The notes under the pieces were generated by a model. The model ran no database searches, was not told the DNA's origin, and saw only the letters and a program-made list of their open reading frames with translations. Shown piece after piece: positions 1 through 14,026 of a DNA stretch of 64,000 nt. Position numbers and translations under genes: made by a program. Each line of letters begins with the position of its first letter. The stretch's first letter is position 1. Source of the stretch: Escherichia coli (GTDB taxonomy: Bacteria > Pseudomonadota > Gammaproteobacteria > Enterobacterales > Enterobacteriaceae); the NCBI RefSeq assembly GCF_003991155.1, contig NZ_CP031293.1, one strand, 5' to 3'.

Positions 1-1098
1 CAACGCTGGCGATTAATTCTTGGCGAAGCGGCAGAAACGACCCTTTGTGGGCTGGATGACAATGCCCGGCAGATAGACCACGCGCTGGAGTGGCTGTATG
101 GGCGCGATCCTGAACGGCTCCAGCGTGGTGAACGCTCTGGTGGATTAGGTGGCTCAAATCTCACCACCCCTGAGTGGATCAACAGTATTCACACACTGTT
201 TCCGCAACAGGTGATTGAGCGACTGGAAAGCGATGCCGTACTGCGCTACGGCATTGAAGATGTGGTGACGAATCTCGACGTACTGGAACGTATGCAGCCT
301 TCTGAAAGCCTGCTACGCGCCGTTTTGCACACCAAACATCTGATGAATCCCGAAGTACTGGCTGCCGCCCGCCAGATAGTGCGCCAGGTTGTTGAAGAAA
401 TTATGGCTCGACTGGCAAAGGAAGTTCGTCAGGCTTTTTCTGGTGTCCGCGATCGCCGTCGCCGCTCATTTATTCCACTGGCGCGAAACTTTGATTTCAA
501 AAGTACTCTGCGCGCCAACCTGCAACACTGGCACCCGCAACACGGCAAGTTGTATATCGAATCCCCCCGCTTTAACAGCCGCATTAAACGCCAAAGCGAA
601 CAATGGCAACTGGTCTTACTGGTTGATCAAAGCGGATCAATGGTGGACTCGGTGATCCACTCCGCAGTGATGGCGGCCTGTTTATGGCAGTTACCCGGTA
701 TTCGTACCCATCTGGTGGCGTTTGACACCAGCGTCGTCGATCTCACGGCAGACGTTGCTGATCCGGTAGAATTATTAATGAAAGTGCAATTAGGCGGCGG
801 GACCAATATCGCCAGTGCTGTGGAATATGGTCGGCAACTTATTGAACAACCAGCGAAAAGCGTCATCATCCTCGTGAGCGATTTTTATGAAGGGGGTTCA
901 TCATCATTGCTGACGCATCAGGTGAAAAAGTGTGTCCAGAGCGGCATCAAAGTGCTGGGGCTGGCAGCGCTCGACAGCACCGCAACGCCTTGCTATGACC
1001 GCGATATGGCCCAGGCGCTGGTTAATGTTGGCGCACAAATAGCCGCAATGACACCGGGTGAACTGGCTACCTGGCTTGCGGAGAATTTGCAGTCATGA
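1..1098 (+). CDS. yehP: von Willebrand factor A (VWA) domain protein YehP, 5' end outside window
   Basis: Frame open from position 1; MIDAS-like motif LLVDQSGSM; stop overlaps next gene start (ATGA). Recognised from K-12 yehLMPQ cluster. Confidence 0.85.
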   Translation, partial: QRWRLILGEAAETTLCGLDDNARQIDHALEWLYGRDPERLQRGERSGGLGGSNLTTPEWINSIHTLFPQQVIERLESDAVLRYGIEDVVTNLDVLERMQPSESLLRAVLHTKHLMNPEVLAAARQIVRQVVEEIMARLAKEVRQAFSGVRDRRRRSFIPLARNFDFKSTLRANLQHWHPQHGKLYIESPRFNSRIKRQSEQWQLVLLVDQSGSMVDSVIHSAVMAACLWQLPGIRTHLVAFDTSVVDLTADVADPVELLMKVQLGGGTNIASAVEYGRQLIEQPAKSVIILVSDFYEGGSSSLLTHQVKKCVQSGIKVLGLAALDSTATPCYDRDMAQALVNVGAQIAAMTPGELATWLAENLQS

Positions 1099-3095
1099 AT
1101 TCACTACGTCCGGAATTATTAGAACTCACGCCGCAGGCCCTGACGGCGTTAAGCAATGCCGGTTTTGTTAAGCGCAGTCTTAAGGAACTGGAAAATGGCA
1201 ACGTCCCGGAAATCAGCCATGAGAACGGCGCTTTAATCGCCACCTTCAGTGACGGTGTCCGTACCCAACTGGCGAGCGGTCAGGCACTGAAAGAGGCTCA
1301 GTGCAGCTGCGGGGCCAACGGCATGTGCCGCCATCGCGTGATGCTGGTTTTAAGTTATCAGCGACTTTGCGCCACCACCCAGCCTACGGAAAAAGAAGAA
1401 GAGTGGGATCCGGCAATCTGGCTGGAAGAACTGGCTACCCTGCCCGATGCCACCCGCAAACGCGCACAGACACTGGTCGCTAAAGGCATCACCATTGAGT
1501 TGTTCTGTACGCCGGGCGAAATTCCCTCTGCCCGCTTACCGATGAGCGATGTACGTTTTTATTCCCGCAGCAGCATTCGTTTCGCACGCTGTGATTGTAT
1601 TGAAGGCACGCTGTGTGAACACGTAGCACTGGCTGTGCAGGCCTTCGTCGAGGCCAAAACTCAGCAAGCGGAATTTACTCATTTAATCTGGCAGATGCGC
1701 AGCGAACACGTCACATCATCTGACGATCCGTTTGCCAACGATGAGGGCGACGCGTGTCGTCAATATGTTCAGCAATTAAGCCAGGCGTTATGGCTTGGCG
1801 GCATCAGCCAGCCGCTTATTCATTACGAGGCTGCTTTCAGCCGCGCGCAGCAAGCGGCGGAACGCTGCAACTGGCGCTGGGTAAGTGAATCACTACGACA
1901 GCTACGGGCAAGCGTTGATGCCTTCCACGCCCGCGCCAGTCACTATCATGCCGGAGAATGCTTACGTCAGCTTGCGGCATTAAACAGTCGATTAAATTGC
2001 GCACAAGAGATGGCGCGGCGCGACAGTGTTGGTGAAGTTCCTCCTGTGCCGTGGCGCACGGTCGTTGGCGCTGGCATTGCCGGAGAAGCAAAGCTTGATC
2101 ATCTGCGGCTGGTGTCTTTAGGTATGCGTTGCTGGCAGGATATTGAACAGTATGGTTTACGCATCTGGTTCACCGATCCCGACACCGGCAGTATTTTGCA
2201 CCTTTCGCGTAGTTGGCCGAGAAGCGAACAAGAAAACGCTCCCGCGGCAAAACGTCGGCTGTTTAGTTTTCAGGCTGGCGCACTGGCAGGTGGGCAAATT
2301 GTTTCACAAGCAGCGCGTCGCAGTGCCGAAGGCGAACTGCTGTTCGCGACCCGTAACCGCTTGAGTAGTGTTGTGCCGCTGTCGCCAGATGCCTGGCAAA
2401 TGTTGAGCGCGCCGTTGCGCCAGCCGGGCATTGTGGCTTTGCGGGAATATTTACGCCAGCGTCCCCCCGCCTGCATACGGCCTCTTAATCAGGTGGATAA
2501 CTTATTTATTCTGCCGGTCGCTGAGTGTATTTCACTCGGTTGGGATAGCAGCCGCCAGACGCTGGATGCGGAGGTAATCAGCGGCGAAGGTGAAGATAAC
2601 GTGCTGACATTATCCCTACCAGCCTCTGCCTGTTCGCCCTTTGCTGTTGAACGCATGGCAGCTCTGTTACAACAAACAGAGGACCCCGTGAGTCTGGTTT
2701 CTGGCTTTGTCAGCTTTGTAGAGGGGCAATTGACACTGGAACCACGGGTGATGATGACAAAAACCCGCGCCTGGGCGCTGGACGCAGAAACTGCGCCTGT
2801 GGCACCGCTACCTTCTGCCAGCGTTCTGCCTGTGCCGTCTACCGCTCATCAGTTGCTGATGCGCTGCCAGGCGTTACTTATTCAACTGCTCCATAACGGC
2901 TGGCGCTATCAGGAACAGAGTGCTATTGGTCAGGCAGAGTTGCTGGCGAATGACCTCACCGCGGTGGGTTTTTATCGGCTGGCACATGTGTTGGCACAAT
3001 TTCGTAATACAGAAAGCGAGGCACGGGTAGAAGCAATGAATAACGGTGTTTTGATTTGCGAACAATTATTCCCCATGCTTCAGCAACAAGGATGA
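1095..3095 (+). CDS. yehQ: SWIM zinc-finger protein YehQ
   Basis: 666-aa ORF with two CxC...CxH SWIM-like motifs (CSCGANGMCRH, CDCIEGTLCEH); start translationally coupled to yehP. Exact start uncertain. Confidence 0.8.
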   Translation: MNSLRPELLELTPQALTALSNAGFVKRSLKELENGNVPEISHENGALIATFSDGVRTQLASGQALKEAQCSCGANGMCRHRVMLVLSYQRLCATTQPTEKEEEWDPAIWLEELATLPDATRKRAQTLVAKGITIELFCTPGEIPSARLPMSDVRFYSRSSIRFARCDCIEGTLCEHVALAVQAFVEAKTQQAEFTHLIWQMRSEHVTSSDDPFANDEGDACRQYVQQLSQALWLGGISQPLIHYEAAFSRAQQAAERCNWRWVSESLRQLRASVDAFHARASHYHAGECLRQLAALNSRLNCAQEMARRDSVGEVPPVPWRTVVGAGIAGEAKLDHLRLVSLGMRCWQDIEQYGLRIWFTDPDTGSILHLSRSWPRSEQENAPAAKRRLFSFQAGALAGGQIVSQAARRSAEGELLFATRNRLSSVVPLSPDAWQMLSAPLRQPGIVALREYLRQRPPACIRPLNQVDNLFILPVAECISLGWDSSRQTLDAEVISGEGEDNVLTLSLPASACSPFAVERMAALLQQTEDPVSLVSGFVSFVEGQLTLEPRVMMTKTRAWALDAETAPVAPLPSASVLPVPSTAHQLLMRCQALLIQLLHNGWRYQEQSAIGQAELLANDLTAVGFYRLAHVLAQFRNTESEARVEAMNNGVLICEQLFPMLQQQG

Positions 3096-3219
3096 AATAG
3101 TGCTTTTTACTAAGAGTTCTACTCCAGTTCCGGACTGCTCACGCCACAGTATTAGGCATATCCTATATAGCCCCTGGTGAGAGTCACCAGTTCCTTGATT
3201 AAATAAAATGGAGTTTTAC

Positions 3220-3681
3220 ATGAAGGCTTTCAATAAGCTGTTTTCCCTTGTGGTAGCATCTGTTCTGGTTTTCTCTCTTGCTGGCTGCGGTGACAAAGAA
3301 GAATCGAAGAAATTCAGCGCCAATCTGAACGGCACTGAAATTGCCATTACCTATGTCTACAAAGGTGACAAGGTGCTTAAGCAATCTTCTGAAACCAAAA
3401 TTCAATTTGCCTCCATTGGTGCAACCACCAAAGAAGATGCCGCCAGGACACTTGAGCCGTTAAGCGCCAAATACAAAAACATCGCGGGTGTTGAAGAAAA
3501 ATTAACCTATACCGATACCTACGCGCAGGAAAACGTGACTATTGATATGGAAAAAGTGGATTTTAAAGCCCTGCAGGGTATTTCAGGAATCAACGTTTCT
3601 GCTGAAGATGCCAAAAAAGGTATCACTATGGCGCAAATGGAACTGGTGATGAAAGCCGCTGGTTTTAAAGAAGTGAAATAA
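3220..3681 (+). CDS. yehR: lipoprotein YehR
   Basis: Signal peptide with lipobox LAGC; second in-frame ATG chosen to give 153 aa. Confidence 0.85.
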   Translation: MKAFNKLFSLVVASVLVFSLAGCGDKEESKKFSANLNGTEIAITYVYKGDKVLKQSSETKIQFASIGATTKEDAARTLEPLSAKYKNIAGVEEKLTYTDTYAQENVTIDMEKVDFKALQGISGINVSAEDAKKGITMAQMELVMKAAGFKEVK

Positions 3682-3687
3682 TCTGTC

Positions 3688-3712
3688 GGCGGCCATGTTT
3701 CGCATGGCCGCC
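3688..3712. terminator. hairpin between convergent yehR and yehS
   Basis: Perfect 10-bp inverted repeat GGCGGCCATG/CATGGCCGCC with 5-nt loop. Confidence 0.5.
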
Positions 3713-3721
3713 ATACCCGTC

Positions 3722-4192
3722 TTAGCTTTTCTTCACATGCTGGCGCGCTGCCAGTCCACGCAGAAAATAACGTAAAAATTGATCGCCGCATTCGCGGAAG
3801 TTTTTATGATCCGGTGCACGCATCATCGCCGTAATTTCCGGCATCGAAACGCGGAACTGCTGTTCGGTGAGGATTGCCAGAATGTCATCGGTTTTAAGCG
3901 AAAACGCGATGCGTAATTTTTTCAGCACGATGTTGTTATTAATGCGACGTTCCGGCTCCAGTGCCGGAGCAGACTCATCCTTGCCGCGTTTTTCATAAAT
4001 CAGGCAATTGAGGAATGAAGACAAAACAATGTCCGGACAACGCTGAAAACCCTCTTCGTCTTCTTTACGTAGCCAGACGGCGATCTGTTCCGCGGTGGCT
4101 TCGACATTACCCAGCGCCAGAATACGCACCAGGTCATTATTATTGGCTTTCAAAATGTAGCGCACGCTGCGCAGAATATCGTTACTTAGCAT
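3722..4192 (-). CDS. yehS: DUF1456 family protein YehS
   Basis: ORF trimmed to internal Met giving 156 aa as in K-12. Confidence 0.8.
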   Translation of the reverse strand: MLSNDILRSVRYILKANNNDLVRILALGNVEATAEQIAVWLRKEDEEGFQRCPDIVLSSFLNCLIYEKRGKDESAPALEPERRINNNIVLKKLRIAFSLKTDDILAILTEQQFRVSMPEITAMMRAPDHKNFRECGDQFLRYFLRGLAARQHVKKS

Positions 4193-4238
4193 GAGGCCTT
4201 CAGGTGTTGATGAGGCAAAAAGCCATTTTAGCAGTCTT

Positions 4239-4958
4239 TTACAGGCCAATCGCCTCTTTTAAGCTTTTCAGATAACGGCGGCTGACCGGCACGGTTAAGC
4301 CATTACGCAAAATCAACTCGGCCTGACCGTTATCTTCCAGACGAATCTCCTGTAAATGCGCGAGGTTAACCAGATACTGACGATGGCAGCGCAGTAGTGG
4401 TGTACGACTCTCCAGGGTACGTAATGTCAGTTCGGTAAAGCCCTCTTTCCCTTCGTGACTGGTAACGTAGACACCGCTCATCCGACTGCTGACAAATGCC
4501 ACATCTTTCATTTGCAGCAAATAAATCCGACTATGCCCCGTACAAGGGATAAATTTCAGCGCCTGTTGATTTTCCGGTAACAACGAAACATCCTGCTTGC
4601 TGCGCTCCAGACGCAATCGCGCCAGCGTTTTCTCCAGTCGCGCTTCATCAATTGGCTTCAGCAGATAATCAAAGGCATGTTCTTCAAAGGCTTTAATGGC
4701 GTATTCGTCAAACGCGGTGAGAAAAACAATATACGGGCGATGTTCCGGGTCGAGCATCCCCACCATTTCCAGACCACTGATGCGCGGCATCTGGATATCG
4801 AGAAACAGCACATCCGGGCGCAGTTTATGCACCGCGCCGATCCCTTCTACGGCGTTTGAACACTCTCCAACGATTTCAATATCGCTCTGCTCCTGCAAAA
4901 ATACGCGCAGGTTCTCCCGTGCTAACGGTTCATCATCGACAATTAAGACTTTAATCAT
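4239..4958 (-). CDS. btsR: LytTR-family response regulator BtsR (YehT)
   Basis: N-terminal receiver domain [17 protein letters not shown]; 239 aa; overlaps btsS stop. Confidence 0.9.
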
Positions 4959-6640
4959 GCCTCGTCCCTCCATGGTAGTCGTAACGTTATTCGGGTGTAA
5001 CTATCAGGCTCACAGGCGACGCTTATCCCATAGTCATCGCCAAACCGTTCACGTAAACGCTTATCCACCAGATTCATCCCCAGCCCACTGGCATTGGTTA
5101 CCGGTTGATACAAACCTGCATTGTCTTCGATCTCCAGCATCAAATGTTGCCCCTCACGTCGGGCGCTGATTGCCACTCGCCCTGTATCCAGCAGTTGTGA
5201 TGTCCCATGTTTAATGGCGTTTTCCACTATCGGTTGCAGGGTAAACGCGGGCAATTGCTGCTGGGATAATTCTTGCGGAATAGCAATGTTGACCTGCAAC
5301 CGCGACTGGAAGCGCGCCTTTTCAATTTGCAGATAAGCGTTCACATGTTCAATTTCGTCGGCGAGAGTAACAAACTCCGAAGGCCGCTTTAAGTTTTTGC
5401 GGAAAAAAGTGGAAAGATACTGCACCAGCTGGCTGGCCTGTTCGCTGTCGCGGCGGATCACCGCTTTAATGGTGTTAAGCGCATTAAACAAAAAATGGGG
5501 ATTCACCTGGGCGTGAAGCAGTTTGATCTCTGACTGGGTGAGCATCGCTTTTTGCCGCTCATATTGCCCGGCGAGGATCTGTGCCGAAAGCAGTTGCGCA
5601 ATCCCCTCACCCAGCGTGCGATTGATTGAACTGAATAAACGGTTTTTGGCTTCATACAATTTGATGGTACCCATCACTCGCTGATTTTCACCACGCAACG
5701 GAATGACCAGCGTCGACCCCAGTTTGCATTGCGGATGCAAAGAGCAACGGTAAGGCACTTCGTTGCCATCAGCGTAGACCACTTCACCGGTTTCAATCGC
5801 TTTTAAGGTATAAGTTGAAGAAATCGGTTTGCCGGGTAAATGGTGGTCGTCACCAATTCCGGTAAAGGCCAGCAATTTCTCTCGATCGGTAATCGCGACT
5901 GCACCAATATCCAGCTCCTGATACAGCACCTGTGCCACTTTCATGCTGTTCTCTTCGTTAAACCCCTGGCGCAAAATGCCTTCCGTCGAGGCCGCCACTT
6001 TCAGCGCAGTGGCAGAAAAAGCCGAAGTGTATTTTTCAAACATCGCGCGTTTATCGAGCAATATACGCATAAACAGTGCCGCGCCGACGGTATTGGTGAC
6101 CATCATTGGCGCAGCAATATTACTCACCAGACGCACCGCATCTTCATAAGGTCGGGCGATCGCCAGGATGATCAACATTTGCACCATTTCAGCGACGAAC
6201 GTAACGGCACCGGCGGTAATGGGGTTAAAGACTTTATCAGTGCGCCCGCGACGGATCAGGATGCTGTGTACCAGGCCGCCGAGCAATCCTTCAACGATGG
6301 TCGAGATCATGCAACTTAGCGCGGTCATGCCCCCCATCGAATATCGATGTAACCCGCCGGTCAGACCAACCAGCCCACCGACGACCGGACCGCCGAGTAA
6401 GCCGCCCATTACCGCGCCTATCGCACGGGTATTGGCAATAGAATCGTCAATGTGCAACCCAAACCAGGTGCCCATGATGCAGAAGATGGAAAAGACGATG
6501 TAGCAGAGAAATTTATGCGGCAGACGAACCGTGACCTGCATTAGCGGTATGAATAATGGCGTTTTACTCATTAACCACGCAATGACTAAAAAAACGCACA
6601 TCTGCTGAAGCAGCAGCAACACCAGATTAAAATCGTACAT
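4955..6640 (-). CDS. btsS: sensor histidine kinase BtsS (YehU), pyruvate-sensing two-component system
   Basis: 561-aa membrane sensor kinase upstream of and overlapping btsR. Confidence 0.9.
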
Positions 6641-6861
6641 ACCCGCAAACCACACTTCCCTTTAAAACGCGTAACATACATTGCCTGCGTTTAACTTTCT
6701 TTGAACTCTTGCAGAAAAATGAGAATTCGTGAGTACGATCACTCAAAATCGCCTGGCAAAAATAAAATCACCCTATAGATGCACAAAAAACGGGCAAAAC
6801 TACCTGGTTCGCAAAACTGCGTCTAAAGTTAAACCGGGACCTCGCGAGCAAGGGTGAGACG

Positions 6862-7593
6862 ATGGCGCTTTACACAATTGGTGAAGTGGCGTTGCTTTGT
6901 GATATTAACCCTGTCACGTTACGCGCGTGGCAGAGGCGTTACGGATTGCTGAAACCGCAACGGACAGACGGCGGTCATCGGCTGTTCAACGATGCCGATA
7001 TTGACCGGATCCGCGAGATCAAACGCTGGATCGACAACGGCGTGCAGGTCAGCAAAGTAAAAATGCTGCTCAGTAATGAAAATGTTGATGTGCAGAACGG
7101 CTGGCGCGATCAGCAAGAAACATTACTGACTTACCTGCAAAGCGGCAATCTGCATAGCCTGCGAACGTGGATCAAAGAGCGCGGTCAGGATTACCCCGCC
7201 CAGACACTCACCACACATCTGTTTATTCCTCTGCGCCGACGACTTCAGTGTCAACAACCGACTCTCCAGGCGCTGCTAGCGATCCTCGACGGCGTACTGA
7301 TCAACTACATCGCCATCTGTCTGGCTTCGGCACGTAAAAAACAGGGTAAAGATGCGCTGGTGGTTGGCTGGAATATTCACGATACCACCCGTCTGTGGCT
7401 GGAGGGCTGGATTGCCAGTCAACAAGGATGGCGCATTGATGTCCTCGCCCACTCGCTCAATCAACTACGCCCTGAACTGTTCGAAGGCCGTACATTGCTG
7501 GTGTGGTGCGGTGAAAATCGAACCTCCGCCCAACAGCAGCAACTCACCAGTTGGCAGGAACAAGGCCATGATATTTTCCCACTCGGCATTTAA
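6862..7593 (+). CDS. mlrA: MerR-family transcriptional regulator MlrA
   Basis: N-terminal MerR HTH (YTIGEVALLCDINPVTLRAWQRRYGLL); 243 aa. Confidence 0.9.
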   Translation: MALYTIGEVALLCDINPVTLRAWQRRYGLLKPQRTDGGHRLFNDADIDRIREIKRWIDNGVQVSKVKMLLSNENVDVQNGWRDQQETLLTYLQSGNLHSLRTWIKERGQDYPAQTLTTHLFIPLRRRLQCQQPTLQALLAILDGVLINYIAICLASARKKQGKDALVVGWNIHDTTRLWLEGWIASQQGWRIDVLAHSLNQLRPELFEGRTLLVWCGENRTSAQQQQLTSWQEQGHDIFPLGI

Positions 7594-7652
7594 TGATTCG
7601 TTAACAAATGCGCTTTACTGTACAATCCTTTCGTTAACATAAGGAGTGCATT

Positions 7653-7760
7653 ATGCGCATAGCTAAAATTGGGGTCATCGCCCTGTTCCTGTTTATGGCG
7701 TTAGGCGGAATTGGTGGCGTCATGCTCGCAGGTTATACCTTTATTTTGCGTGCTGGCTGA
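7653..7760 (+). CDS. yohO: small membrane protein YohO (35 aa)
   Basis: Not in ORF track (<60 aa). RBS AAGGAG then ATG; encodes [35 protein letters not shown]; overlaps 3' end of convergent yehW. Confidence 0.75.
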
Positions 7761-8472
7761 ACGCCTGCACCAGCCTTTCAAACAGGCGGTCTGCGATGAT
7801 CGCCGCCAGTGCCACCAGTAACGCCCCCTGGATCACATACGCGGTATTAAATCCGCTAAGCCCGATGATGATCGGCATACCCAGCGTGCTGGCCCCTACC
7901 GTTGAGGCGATCGTCGCCGTACCAATGTTGATAATCACCGAAGTTCGCACGCCCGCCAGAATCACCGGAGCCGCCAGCGGTAGCTCGACCTTACGCAGTC
8001 GCTGACCACGACTCATTCCCATACCTTTCGCAACTTCTGTCACGCTGGCATCAATCGCTCCCAGCCCGGCAAGTGTCGCCTGCAGGACGGGCAGCACGCC
8101 GTAAAGGATCAAGGCGATAATCGCGGGTTGCAGACCAAAGCCGATCACCGGAACGGCAATCGCCAGCACCGCGACGGGCGGAAAAGTCTGCCCAACGGCG
8201 GCAATAGTTTCCACCAGTGGGCGAAATTCCGCGCCCCACGGGCGAGTAACAATAATTCCTGCACCAGTGCCAATGATCACCGCAAACAAACTCGAAATTC
8301 CCACCAGCCAGAAATGAGCCAGTGCCAGAGCTGCAAAACTTTCTTGCTGATAAACGGGGCGTGGCAGTTGTGGGAACAAGGCAGCAAACAGCGGCTGGCT
8401 GTAAGGCAGCCAGAAAATCAGTGCCACAAACAAAGCAATGAGCCAGAACAGCGGATCGCGCAACATCTTCAT
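7741..8472 (-). CDS. yehW: osmoprotectant ABC transporter permease YehW
   Basis: 243-aa polytopic membrane ORF in yehZYXW operon. Confidence 0.9.
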
Positions 8473-11728: not shown

Positions 11729-14026
11729 TTACAGCAACTCAAACTCGCCTTTCTTAACGCGTGCGGAATCAGTGCCGATAAAGACATTGAACTTGCCAGG
11801 CTCGGCGTCATATTTCATCTGTTGATTCCAGAACTTCAGCGCCTCGATATCAATCGGGAAGCTGACGGTCTGGGTTTCGCCCGGTTTCAGGGTGATTTTC
11901 TCAAAGCCTTTCAGCTGTTTTACCGGGCGACTCATGGAAGCCGTCACATCCTGCAGGTACATCTGAACTACCGTCGCCCCTTCGCGCTTACCGGTGTTCG
12001 TCACCTGCACGCTGGCGGTCACTTTGCCGTCACGCTTCATGGTCGGCGCAGAAAGTTTCACATCAGAGACGGTGAAAGTGGTATAGCTCAGACCATAGCC
12101 GAACGGATAAAGCGCCCCGTTAGCTTCATCAAAATAACGCGAAGTGTATTTGTTCGGCTTGTCGGCATTATACGGGCGACCGGTATTCAGATGACTGTAG
12201 TACACCGGGATCTGCCCGACAGAACGCGGGAAGGACATCGGCAGCTTGCCGGACGGGTTGTAATCGCCAAACAATACATCGGCAATTGCATTACCGCCTT
12301 CAGTCCCCGCAAACCAGGTTTCCAGAATCGCATCCGCCTGCTGATCTTCTTTCACCAGCGCCAGCGGACGCCCGTTCATCAGCACCAGCACCAGCGGTTT
12401 ACCGGTGGCTTTCAGCGCCGCAATCAAGTCACGTTGGCTTTGCGGAATAGTGATATCGGTACGGCTGGAGGCCTCGTGCGCCATCCCCTGAGCTTCACCG
12501 ACCACAGCCACCACCACATCAGATTGCTTCGCGGTTTGCACCGCTTCATCAATCATCTCTTGCGGCGAGCGCGGGTCGACTTTGACCGCCTCTTCATACT
12601 GATTCAGGAAATCGATAATGCCTTTGTCACTGGTGACGTTCGCCCCTTTGGCGTACAGCACTTTACCGTTTTCACCGACGGCGTTTTTAATCCCTGTTAG
12701 CACAGTAACAGATTGATCGGCGACACCTGCTGCCGACCAGCTTCCCATCACGTCACGCTTGCTGTCTGCCAGCGGGCCAACCACCGCAATGGTGGCTGAT
12801 TTTTTCAGCGGTAACGTTTCGAGACGGTTTTTCAGCAACACCAGGCTTTCGCGTGCCACTTCACGCGCTTCTTTGCGGTGCAGGCGGTTTTCGGCATTGG
12901 TATCCACCGGGTCAGACTCTTTCGGACCGAGATGGCTGTACGGGTCGTTAAACAACCCCATATCATATTTAACGTTCAGTACATGACGGGCAGCGTCATC
13001 CAGCTCTTCCATCGTCACTTTGCCGGATTTGATCAACCCAGGCAGATACTTCGAGTAATACTCGTCGCTCATACTCATGTTGATGCCGGATTTCAGCGCC
13101 ACGCGCACCGCATCTTCCGGGTCTGCCGCCGTGCCATGTTTAATCAGCTCTTTGATTGCGCCGTGATCGGAAACGGTGATGCCTTTAAAGCCCCACTGGT
13201 CGCGCAGAACATCTTTCAGCAGCCAGGAGTCGGAGGTGGCTGGCGTGCCGTTCAGCGAGTTCAGCGCCACCATCACCGCACCGCTGCCTGCATCCAGCCC
13301 CGCTTTGTACGGCGGCATATAGTCGTTAAACAGGCGCTGCGGACTCATATCGACGGTGTTGTACTCTTTACCGCCTTCTACCGCGCCGTATGCGGCAAAG
13401 TGTTTGACGCTGGTCATCACCGAGTAGCGATCTGCCGGGCTTTTACCCTGCATCGCTTCCACCATGGTTTTGCCCATTATTGAGGTGAGATACGTATCTT
13501 CGCCAAAACCTTCGGAAGCACGTCCCCAGCGCGGATCGCGCGAGACATCGACCATCGGTGCCCAGGTCATGTTCAGGCCATCATCTGCCGCTTCATAAGC
13601 AGAGACACGCCCGACTGTTTTCACTGCATCGAGGTTAAAAGACGAGGCCAGACCGAGGCTAATCGGGAACACCGTGCGCTGACCGTGCAGCACGTCGTAA
13701 GCAAAGAAAAGAGGAATTTTCAGGCGGCTTAATTCCATCACCTGATCCTGCATGGCGCGGATATCCTGACGGGTTACGGTGTTGAAAATCGCCCCAACCT
13801 GCCCGTCTTTGATCATCTCGCGGATCGCCTCTTTCGGATTATCCGGGCCGACGCTGATTAAACGCAGCTGACCAATTTTCTCATCAACTGTCATTTTCTT
13901 AAGCAGTTCGGTGACGAACGCATCCCGCGCTTCGGGCGTTAATGGATGGTTGCCGAATAAATCATCCGCCAGTGCTGGCTGCAGGGCCAGACTCACCGCG
14001 ATTCCTACTGAACATAGCCATTTCAT
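11729..14026 (-). CDS. bglX: periplasmic beta-glucosidase BglX (glycoside hydrolase family 3)
   Basis: ORF trimmed to MKWLCSVGIAVSLA signal-peptide start (765 aa). Confidence 0.9.
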   Translation of the reverse strand: MKWLCSVGIAVSLALQPALADDLFGNHPLTPEARDAFVTELLKKMTVDEKIGQLRLISVGPDNPKEAIREMIKDGQVGAIFNTVTRQDIRAMQDQVMELSRLKIPLFFAYDVLHGQRTVFPISLGLASSFNLDAVKTVGRVSAYEAADDGLNMTWAPMVDVSRDPRWGRASEGFGEDTYLTSIMGKTMVEAMQGKSPADRYSVMTSVKHFAAYGAVEGGKEYNTVDMSPQRLFNDYMPPYKAGLDAGSGAVMVALNSLNGTPATSDSWLLKDVLRDQWGFKGITVSDHGAIKELIKHGTAADPEDAVRVALKSGINMSMSDEYYSKYLPGLIKSGKVTMEELDDAARHVLNVKYDMGLFNDPYSHLGPKESDPVDTNAENRLHRKEAREVARESLVLLKNRLETLPLKKSATIAVVGPLADSKRDVMGSWSAAGVADQSVTVLTGIKNAVGENGKVLYAKGANVTSDKGIIDFLNQYEEAVKVDPRSPQEMIDEAVQTAKQSDVVVAVVGEAQGMAHEASSRTDITIPQSQRDLIAALKATGKPLVLVLMNGRPLALVKEDQQADAILETWFAGTEGGNAIADVLFGDYNPSGKLPMSFPRSVGQIPVYYSHLNTGRPYNADKPNKYTSRYFDEANGALYPFGYGLSYTTFTVSDVKLSAPTMKRDGKVTASVQVTNTGKREGATVVQMYLQDVTASMSRPVKQLKGFEKITLKPGETQTVSFPIDIEALKFWNQQMKYDAEPGKFNVFIGTDSARVKKGEFELL

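Follow-up and report, generated by a model that had tools for sequence, protein, structure and literature searches.

Introduction

In MoxR-VWA pairs, the hexamer of an AAA+ ATPase binds a VWA protein, whose metal-ion-dependent adhesion site (MIDAS) grips an acidic residue of a partner protein, and ATP hydrolysis remodels this partner. CoxD-CoxE is such a pair and acts in the maturation of CO dehydrogenase, and known MoxR maturation pairs usually adjoin the genes of their clients. Midasin (Rea1), with six AAA modules, removes assembly factors from pre-60S particles. Escherichia coli possesses the pair RavA-ViaA (PMC3893208), and MoxR-vWA pairs have also been described as core switches of predicted conflict systems (PMC7159879). 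Here we report on yehP and yehQ, located at positions 1-3095 of a 64,000-nucleotide stretch of E. coli DNA (contig NZ_CP031293.1 of assembly GCF_003991155.1, the whole stretch being referred to as the window), and on the gene module to which both belong.

These genes are annotated and recorded as uncharacterised, and the locus itself is no discovery; what is new is a MoxR-VWA system with a set of partners undescribed in the literature searched. An initial annotation of the window had stated that the operon has no established function, and full-text searches of the literature agree with this, as no function assigned to yehLMPQ was found, the gene-name queries being clouded by authors surnamed Yeh. 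The conflict or stress-surveillance role that this annotation cited as proposed for such ATPase/VWA cassettes may apply here. The main paper on MoxR-vWA conflict systems is silent on YehL, SWIM, DUF4132 and WGR (PMC7159879).

Results and discussion

A conserved unit of five genes, in which yehP and yehQ occupy the fourth and fifth places behind a WGR-DUF4132 gene (molR, yehH or yehI), yehL and yehM, is well supported by the loci compared, and so is its description as an assembly of a MoxR motor and a MIDAS adaptor with three dedicated partners. Upstream gene order was read from one E. coli genome that agrees base for base with 15 kb or more of the window. Here and in K-12 the order is DUF4132 genes (molR, yehH, yehI), yehK, yehL, yehM, yehP, yehQ and yehR, with yehP two genes downstream of yehL and yehM in between. 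The initial annotation had proposed yehL, a MoxR-like AAA+ ATPase, and yehM directly upstream of yehP, and both were found there in the two genomes; an AAA+ ATPase at this place had been set beforehand as the test of the claim, which survives, as YehL matches AAA_5. The cassette yehL-yehM-yehP-yehQ suggested at that time had the right gene order, but the conserved unit has five genes and includes the WGR-DUF4132 gene.

A search for YehQ-like proteins in the full library led to 855 cluster representatives (264 at E ≤ 1e-30, mostly full-length matches), and a scan of one genome per species led to 272 relatives, the best 80 of which were analysed by profile searches together with six other loci (86 loci in total). 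The exact order DUF4132-L-M-P-Q was present in 41 of these 86 loci. The others mostly carry extra DUF4132 copies or show the permutations LMPQI (Burkholderia) and LMIPQ (Mesorhizobium), and exceptions to the five-gene order are mostly cut by contig ends; among the loci with enough flanking DNA, almost all have I-L-M-P-Q or a permutation thereof, and linkage of yehL and yehP was observed in nearly all related loci of this kind. Three distant YehQ homologues (27-39% identity) directly follow AAA_5, DUF5682 and VWA_CoxE genes as far as the contigs reach, with a WGR/DUF4132 gene ahead of the module in two of the three. The module was detected in Enterobacterales, Burkholderiales, Xanthomonadales, Myxococcota, Mycobacterium, Acidobacteriota and Mesorhizobium, and the five-gene order is kept in at least five phyla (Pseudomonadota, Myxococcota, Actinomycetota, Acidobacteriota and Bacillota). 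On the mobilizable plasmid p322 of Bacillus mycoides (locus L089, 5865-15397), genes for a DUF4132 protein, an AAA ATPase, a DUF5682, a VWA and a SWIM protein follow each other in the same order, and further carriers of the module are a plasmid of Iodobacter (76 kb) and large replicons from Agrobacterium, Allorhizobium, Sinorhizobium and Streptomyces. Matches to YehQ in the AlphaFold database (AFDB) add Streptomyces, other actinomycetes and alphaproteobacteria. Overlaps of 4 nt are available at the P-Q junction in 63 of 82 loci, at M-P in 46 of 79 and at L-M in 36 of 77, and the mean column identity across phyla decreases from YehL (76%) and YehP (71%) via YehM (50%) and the DUF4132 protein (45%) to YehQ (39%). 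When 1850 flanking open reading frames (ORFs) were clustered, no sixth gene or client enzyme recurred beyond lineage synteny, the largest family being present at 8 loci, and an NCBIfam scan of the six cluster proteins gave nothing usable. Carriage of the module by phages was considered and rejected: the sole full-length match is a chromosomal flank in the prophage record AP000400.1 (VT1-Sakai, 919-2919), where the yehP/yehQ flank adjoins a gene annotated as yehV. The Stx1 prophage integrates at yehV (mlrA), downstream of the yeh cluster.

YehL matches Pfam AAA_5 with E = 2.6e-34 and, faintly, bpMoxR (E = 0.0024). Among 26 homologues there is no variation in the Walker A motif (GEPGTAKS), in the F-E-E at the site of Walker B or in an RR pair, and the protein from E. 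coli is 62-66% identical to homologues from other phyla. By Pfam match and motifs, YehL is a MoxR-type AAA+ ATPase with intact nucleotide-binding motifs, for which a hexameric ring and an ATPase activity stimulated by the VWA partner are predicted. F-E-E corresponds to residues 155-157 (gene at 8591-9679 of L001, the locus of a strain identical to that of the window), with Glu replacing the usual Asp of the hydrophobic-D-E Walker B. The top sequence match of YehL among solved structures was to the AAA modules of Midasin (E = 3e-14), above a MoxR structure. The yeh module resembles Midasin in combining AAA_5 and MIDAS, here in separate proteins, whereas Midasin is a single chain of about 4700-4900 residues and the match of YehL spans only about 100 residues; we know of no link of the yeh module to the ribosome. 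One of seven MoxR subfamilies, the uncharacterised 'YehL subfamily', is named after YehL (PMC3893208), which represents the second MoxR ATPase of E. coli. RavA-ViaA, the other pair of this organism, similarly consists of a MoxR ATPase and a VWA cofactor in one operon, but belongs to the RavA instead of the YehL subfamily, has two genes without DUF5682, SWIM and DUF4132 partners, and interacts with the NADH:ubiquinone oxidoreductase I (Nuo) complex (PMC3893208).

The second part of the proposed machine, YehP, is encoded right at the window's start. In the ORF list and translation, frame 1 contains no stop codon between base 1 and a TGA at 1096-1098; this ORF corresponds to yehP minus its first 13 codons (1-1098; like all features given below with window coordinates on the + strand) according to the translation, the RefSeq annotation of the identical strain, Pfam and the ratio of non-synonymous to synonymous substitution rates (dN/dS). 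In L001 the gene starts at 11962 and base 1 of the window is 12001, 39 nt inside the gene; start 1 is therefore the window edge and not the gene start, since the true start lies 39 nt further upstream. The complete YehP has 378 amino acids, with a helical N-terminal region followed by a CoxE-type VWA domain, which matches Pfam VWA_CoxE with E = 5.5e-72 from residue 151 to 372 (window 412-1077; model positions 1-222 of 222). The DxSxS motif of the MIDAS, D222-Q-S224-G-S226 (625-639), as well as T256 (727-729) and D307 (880-882) could be read from the sequence, and these five MIDAS residues are invariant in an alignment of 27 homologues from several phyla, in line with the MIDAS-type VWA domain of the initial annotation. 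YehP from E. coli and its homologues from other phyla are 55-63% identical. Pfam detected only VWA families in YehP and no variable C-terminal effector domain, and a sequence-profile search of the PDB gave nothing. Within the gene, window 820-835 reads GTG GAA TAT GGT CGG C, in which the Shine-Dalgarno-like GGAG stimulator of a frameshifting context is weakened. Natural fusions of YehP and YehQ were looked for and discarded: apart from one distant case (P0180), the fused forms found are deletion or read-through chimeras of E. coli and therefore no evidence of a stable fusion.

The stop codon of yehP (TGA, 1096-1098) overlaps with the start codon of yehQ (ATG, 1095-1097), and this ATGA at 1095-1098, on which the proposed coupling of the two genes had been based, is directly read from the sequence. 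yehQ is present in its full-length form of 666 amino acids (1095-3095), as seen from the ORF list, the RefSeq name, an AlphaFold2 (AF2) model and dN/dS. Twelve top-listed E. coli chromosomes are 100% identical to window 1-3095, and RefSeq names in identical strains are vWA domain-containing protein for yehP and SWIM zinc finger family protein for yehQ. Compared to K-12, dN/dS is 0.041 for yehP and 0.105 for yehQ, which, as judged from the codons, are both under purifying selection.

YehQ contains two CxCx5CxH motifs, C70-x-C72-x5-C78-x-H80 (1302-1334) and C166-x-C168-x5-C174-x-H176 (1590-1622), as the initial annotation had seen. Taken singly, the matches to Pfam SWIM (PF04434) are weak, with E = 0.0049 for the first and E = 0.24 for the second. 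Alignment of 36 homologues sharing 24-48% identity showed no variation in the first quartet and at least 90% conservation of the second, and the retention of both quartets at such identities indicates constraint and not chance. By signature the motifs are SWIM zinc fingers, with zinc binding being predicted. A strongly conserved helical N-terminus (residues 1-38, 1095-1208; alignment and secondary structure of the model) with R5, D7, L8, L11, L19, N21, G23, V25, K26, A28, G35 and P38 as conserved residues may serve as a docking surface. The SWIM motifs are followed by a helical bundle (residues 216-311, 1740-2027), a beta-rich region with oligonucleotide/oligosaccharide-binding (OB)-like barrels (residues 331-561, 2085-2777) and a C-terminal helical bundle (residues 583-665, 2841-3089; model and codon comparison). 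The AF2 model is confident, with a predicted local distance difference test (pLDDT) of 90.2 and a predicted TM-score (pTM) of 0.88. A fold search against the PDB found no match to the whole protein but generic single domains (SWIM, OB-like barrels, helical bundles), a fold search of AFDB50 led to unannotated 'SWIM-type domain-containing' homologues only, and a sequence-profile search of the PDB gave nothing.

YehM matches Pfam DUF5682 (E = 5.5e-98), which is the sole Pfam match in all 27 members. The N-terminal domain has a fold similar to those of ChaN, TraB and erythromycin esterase, and G8-x-x-H11, E35 and G199-x-x-H202 show no or almost no variation, also with the Bacillus copy included. 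From this fold and motif pattern, the domain is a candidate catalytic domain. YehM differs from the ChaN/TraB-PrgY-GumN/erythromycin-esterase group in the fusion of this domain to an alpha-solenoid of about 500 residues, which makes up the remainder of the protein, and in that sequence profiles detect no kinship: hhalign against TraB/GumN led to probabilities of 0.2-0.4%, using YbaP alone or a TraB alignment of 10 sequences, which is shallow (65-83% identity) because the YbaP homologue search returned close relatives only. One additional fold match is HopBA1, an effector that triggers plant immunity, and a sequence-profile search of the PDB gave only spurious coiled-coil matches. In 55 of 73 loci, a WGR domain forms the N-terminus of the DUF4132 protein, the overall architecture being WGR-solenoid-DUF4132. 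Conservation is strong in the C-terminal third of this protein (about residues 740-1140 in YehI), while the N-terminal two thirds vary, and the paralogues YehH and YehI share only 38% identity. For this protein, too, a sequence-profile search of the PDB gave nothing. yehK is restricted to Escherichia among the loci analysed. In the yehK-yehL spacer of the identical strain (L001 8404-8479, some 3.5 kb upstream of base 1 of the window), an OrzO-P antitoxin RNA was detected (Rfam RF02083, 102.8 bits), marking an inserted zor-orz type I toxin-antitoxin locus; the zor-orz locus between yehK and yehL is missing from K-12 (Fozo et al., 2010, PMC2887945).

Regulatory data for the module hint at a link to DNA damage. 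A LexA-type CTG-N10-CAG box, AACTGGATAAAATTACAGGG, is located just upstream of the molR start in the window strain (L087 2773-2792) and in K-12 (L002 8449-8468), and molR is among the LexA-regulated genes having a known SOS box (PMC6590174). BglJ-RcsB acts as an activator at the molR promoter (PMC3950696), whereas H-NS binds the spacer ahead of yehL, with yehL and yehM being de-repressed in an hns/stpA mutant (PMC3686432). In Deinococcus radiodurans, DNA damage induces a WGR protein and a DUF4132 protein via DdrO/IrrE (PMC8533742). Because no client gene is linked, the partners include WGR and SWIM proteins, and LexA, BglJ-RcsB and H-NS act as inputs, we infer a self-contained, stress-responsive and nucleic-acid-linked complex. 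As biological role we tentatively favour that of a remodelling or processing complex which is triggered by stress and probably linked to DNA damage, over maturation of a metalloenzyme. By analogy with the MoxR-VWA pairs RavA-ViaA, CbbQ-CbbO and CoxD-CoxE and with Midasin, a YehL hexamer would bind YehP, the MIDAS site of YehP would grip an acidic residue of a partner protein, and ATP hydrolysis by YehL would remodel or release this partner. The partners would be the other three proteins of the module, with YehQ, through its SWIM fingers and OB-like barrels, and the WGR-DUF4132 protein recognising a nucleic acid or nucleoprotein target, and YehM acting as a scaffold and possibly as a metal-dependent hydrolase. 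Stress would turn the module on in E. coli, with LexA and BglJ-RcsB acting at the molR promoter and H-NS silencing the yehL promoter.

Several observations weigh against a stress-triggered complex of this kind. The link of YehM to ChaN and TraB consists of fold and motif pattern only, with 0.4% probability in hhalign against the TraB alignment and no Pfam match besides DUF5682, and ChaN itself has been described as heme-binding, so that the similarity is no evidence of an enzyme. Among the module proteins there is neither a nuclease nor another obvious effector. A LexA-type box in the corresponding position is limited to Escherichia, Intestinirhabdus, Erwinia and, in weak form, Iodobacter, and most other loci lack it; general SOS control is therefore unsupported and SOS control may be local. 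The WGR and DUF4132 genes of Deinococcus have no demonstrated membership in a MoxR module (PMC8533742), H-NS silences the module under laboratory conditions, and some lineages of E. coli and Shigella have lost or broken it. A further-reaching version, in which the module is an unrecognised multi-phylum surveillance machine with a Midasin-like motor that controls a TraB/Tiki-like hydrolase and with DNA damage or foreign DNA being sensed via WGR and SWIM, appears doubtful.

Alternatively, the module might function in cofactor or metal-centre insertion, with YehL and YehP delivering or removing metal, the DUF4132 protein holding the substrate and the ChaN-like domain of YehM binding the cofactor, similar to CoxD/CoxE, NorQ/NorD, CbbQ/CbbO and the three-part chelatases BchI/D/H and CobS/T/N; we consider this unlikely. 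YehP shares with CoxE the full-length match to the CoxE-named Pfam family and the pairing with a MoxR-class ATPase from the same operon, and a third subunit of about 1200 amino acids recalls BchH and CobN. The yeh module differs from CoxD-CoxE in having no linked CO dehydrogenase, no coxF/XdhC-like gene and no other candidate client, and its DUF5682, SWIM and WGR-DUF4132 partners have no counterpart in cox clusters. In none of the lineages was a candidate client enzyme linked beyond local synteny, which separates the module from the client-linked pairs CoxD/E, NorQ/D and CbbQ/O, as no client was present beside it among the 1850 flanking ORFs. The faint match of YehP to a cobaltochelatase subunit in NCBIfam might be taken as support for insertion, but with 18.7 bits (TIGR02442) it is far below the cut-off of 779 bits, and YehP does not belong to the class I chelatase D/CobT models. 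WGR and SWIM proteins, LexA control and H-NS silencing would also be odd for a housekeeping maturation factor. molR was first named from a molybdate-utilisation phenotype, as later papers cite it (Lee et al., 1990, cited in PMC7824862 and PMC8533742), which would fit insertion, but the molybdate-metabolism genes of Deinococcus did not respond along with the WGR and DUF4132 genes (PMC8533742).

Defence against phages or mobile elements, with WGR and SWIM sensing invading DNA, the MoxR-VWA pair setting a threshold and YehM or an unrecognised activity as effector, would be in agreement with the role of MoxR-vWA pairs in predicted conflict systems, the patchy distribution over phyla with copies on plasmids and chromids, the H-NS-silenced yehL promoter and the fold match of YehM to HopBA1. 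Escherichia, Klebsiella and Massilia possess two or three copies of the DUF4132 gene, which appears sensor-like and has the highest dN/dS of the cluster (0.196 compared to K-12). Synonymous divergence (dS) from K-12 is 0.12-0.24 from yehI to yehQ and 0.05-0.07 in yehR, yehS, btsSR and mlrA (window about 3200-8000), and the divergence of the cluster is thus 2-4 times that of the flanking genes; among 5363 E. coli records only 47 are at least 99% identical to window 1-3095 and 4013 are 90-95% identical. Raised dS and few near-identical records suggest that the locus has deep allelic lineages or has undergone recombination. Repeated loss or breakage of the module in E. coli and Shigella would also suit a defence function. 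Against this, the locus is no variable island but lies at a single fixed site, flanked by metG and yehR, in 98.8% of complete E. coli genomes (5361 of 5426), nearly always single and chromosomal, and the same site is used in Klebsiella and Intestinirhabdus. The cross-phylum identities of YehL and YehP given above are unusually high for immune genes, the module is not carried by any phage, no toxic effector is recognisable, and YehI, YehK, YehL, YehM, YehP and YehQ had no match at E ≤ 0.01 to the 5027 models of PADLOC-DB 2.0.0. The ternary conflict systems (Kaur et al., 2020, PMC7159879) resemble the yeh module in their CoxD-CoxE-derived pair and sensor-like components. The yeh module, however, has no VMAP, iSTAND or beta-propeller component and YehP no variable effector domain, and without this third component and an effector-bearing vWA protein it falls outside this class. 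Defence is regarded as improbable.

The state of the locus differs between E. coli strains. Codon 615 of yehQ (window 2937-2939) is GAG in the window strain and TAG (amber) in K-12 MG1655, leading to a YehQ of 614 amino acids without the last 52 residues and about half of the C-terminal helical bundle, and yehH of K-12 is a pseudogene. With these defects, K-12 amounts to a natural partial mutant of the module and is a poor reference, although the order of yehL and yehM taken from it in the initial annotation was right. Truncated and chimeric YehQ forms are common in E. coli, with clusters of 416, 501 and 517 amino acids (hundreds of members each) and yehI::yehQ fusions. Chimeras from E. coli assemblies (P0097-P0099, P0075, P0095, P0119 and P0091) join yehI, yehP or yehM fragments to the YehQ C-terminus, which suggests independent internal operon deletions in some lineages, and yehL and yehM are missing through deletion from lineages 2 and 3 of Shigella sonnei. 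Such damage, together with H-NS silencing of the yehL promoter, could indicate that the module is a horizontally acquired, silenced relic with no present role in E. coli, but this is highly unlikely because of the purifying selection on all five genes (dN/dS 0.02-0.2 compared to K-12), more than 16,000 members in the clusters of full-length YehQ (666/667 amino acids), the presence of the locus in nearly all complete E. coli genomes and the intact module in the same order across phyla.

Conclusion

New here are the five-gene module in at least five phyla, the candidate catalytic domain of YehM, a regulation pointing to DNA damage, and the recognition of K-12 as a partial mutant, a possible reason for the uninformative outcome of genome-wide screens in this strain. 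A long-standing 'y-gene' unknown thereby becomes directly testable. If the surveillance machine described above were real, it would represent a new class of DNA-damage or anti-invader response, hidden in E. coli by the broken alleles of K-12 and by H-NS, and a stress-surveillance machine would be open to study in the best-known model organism.

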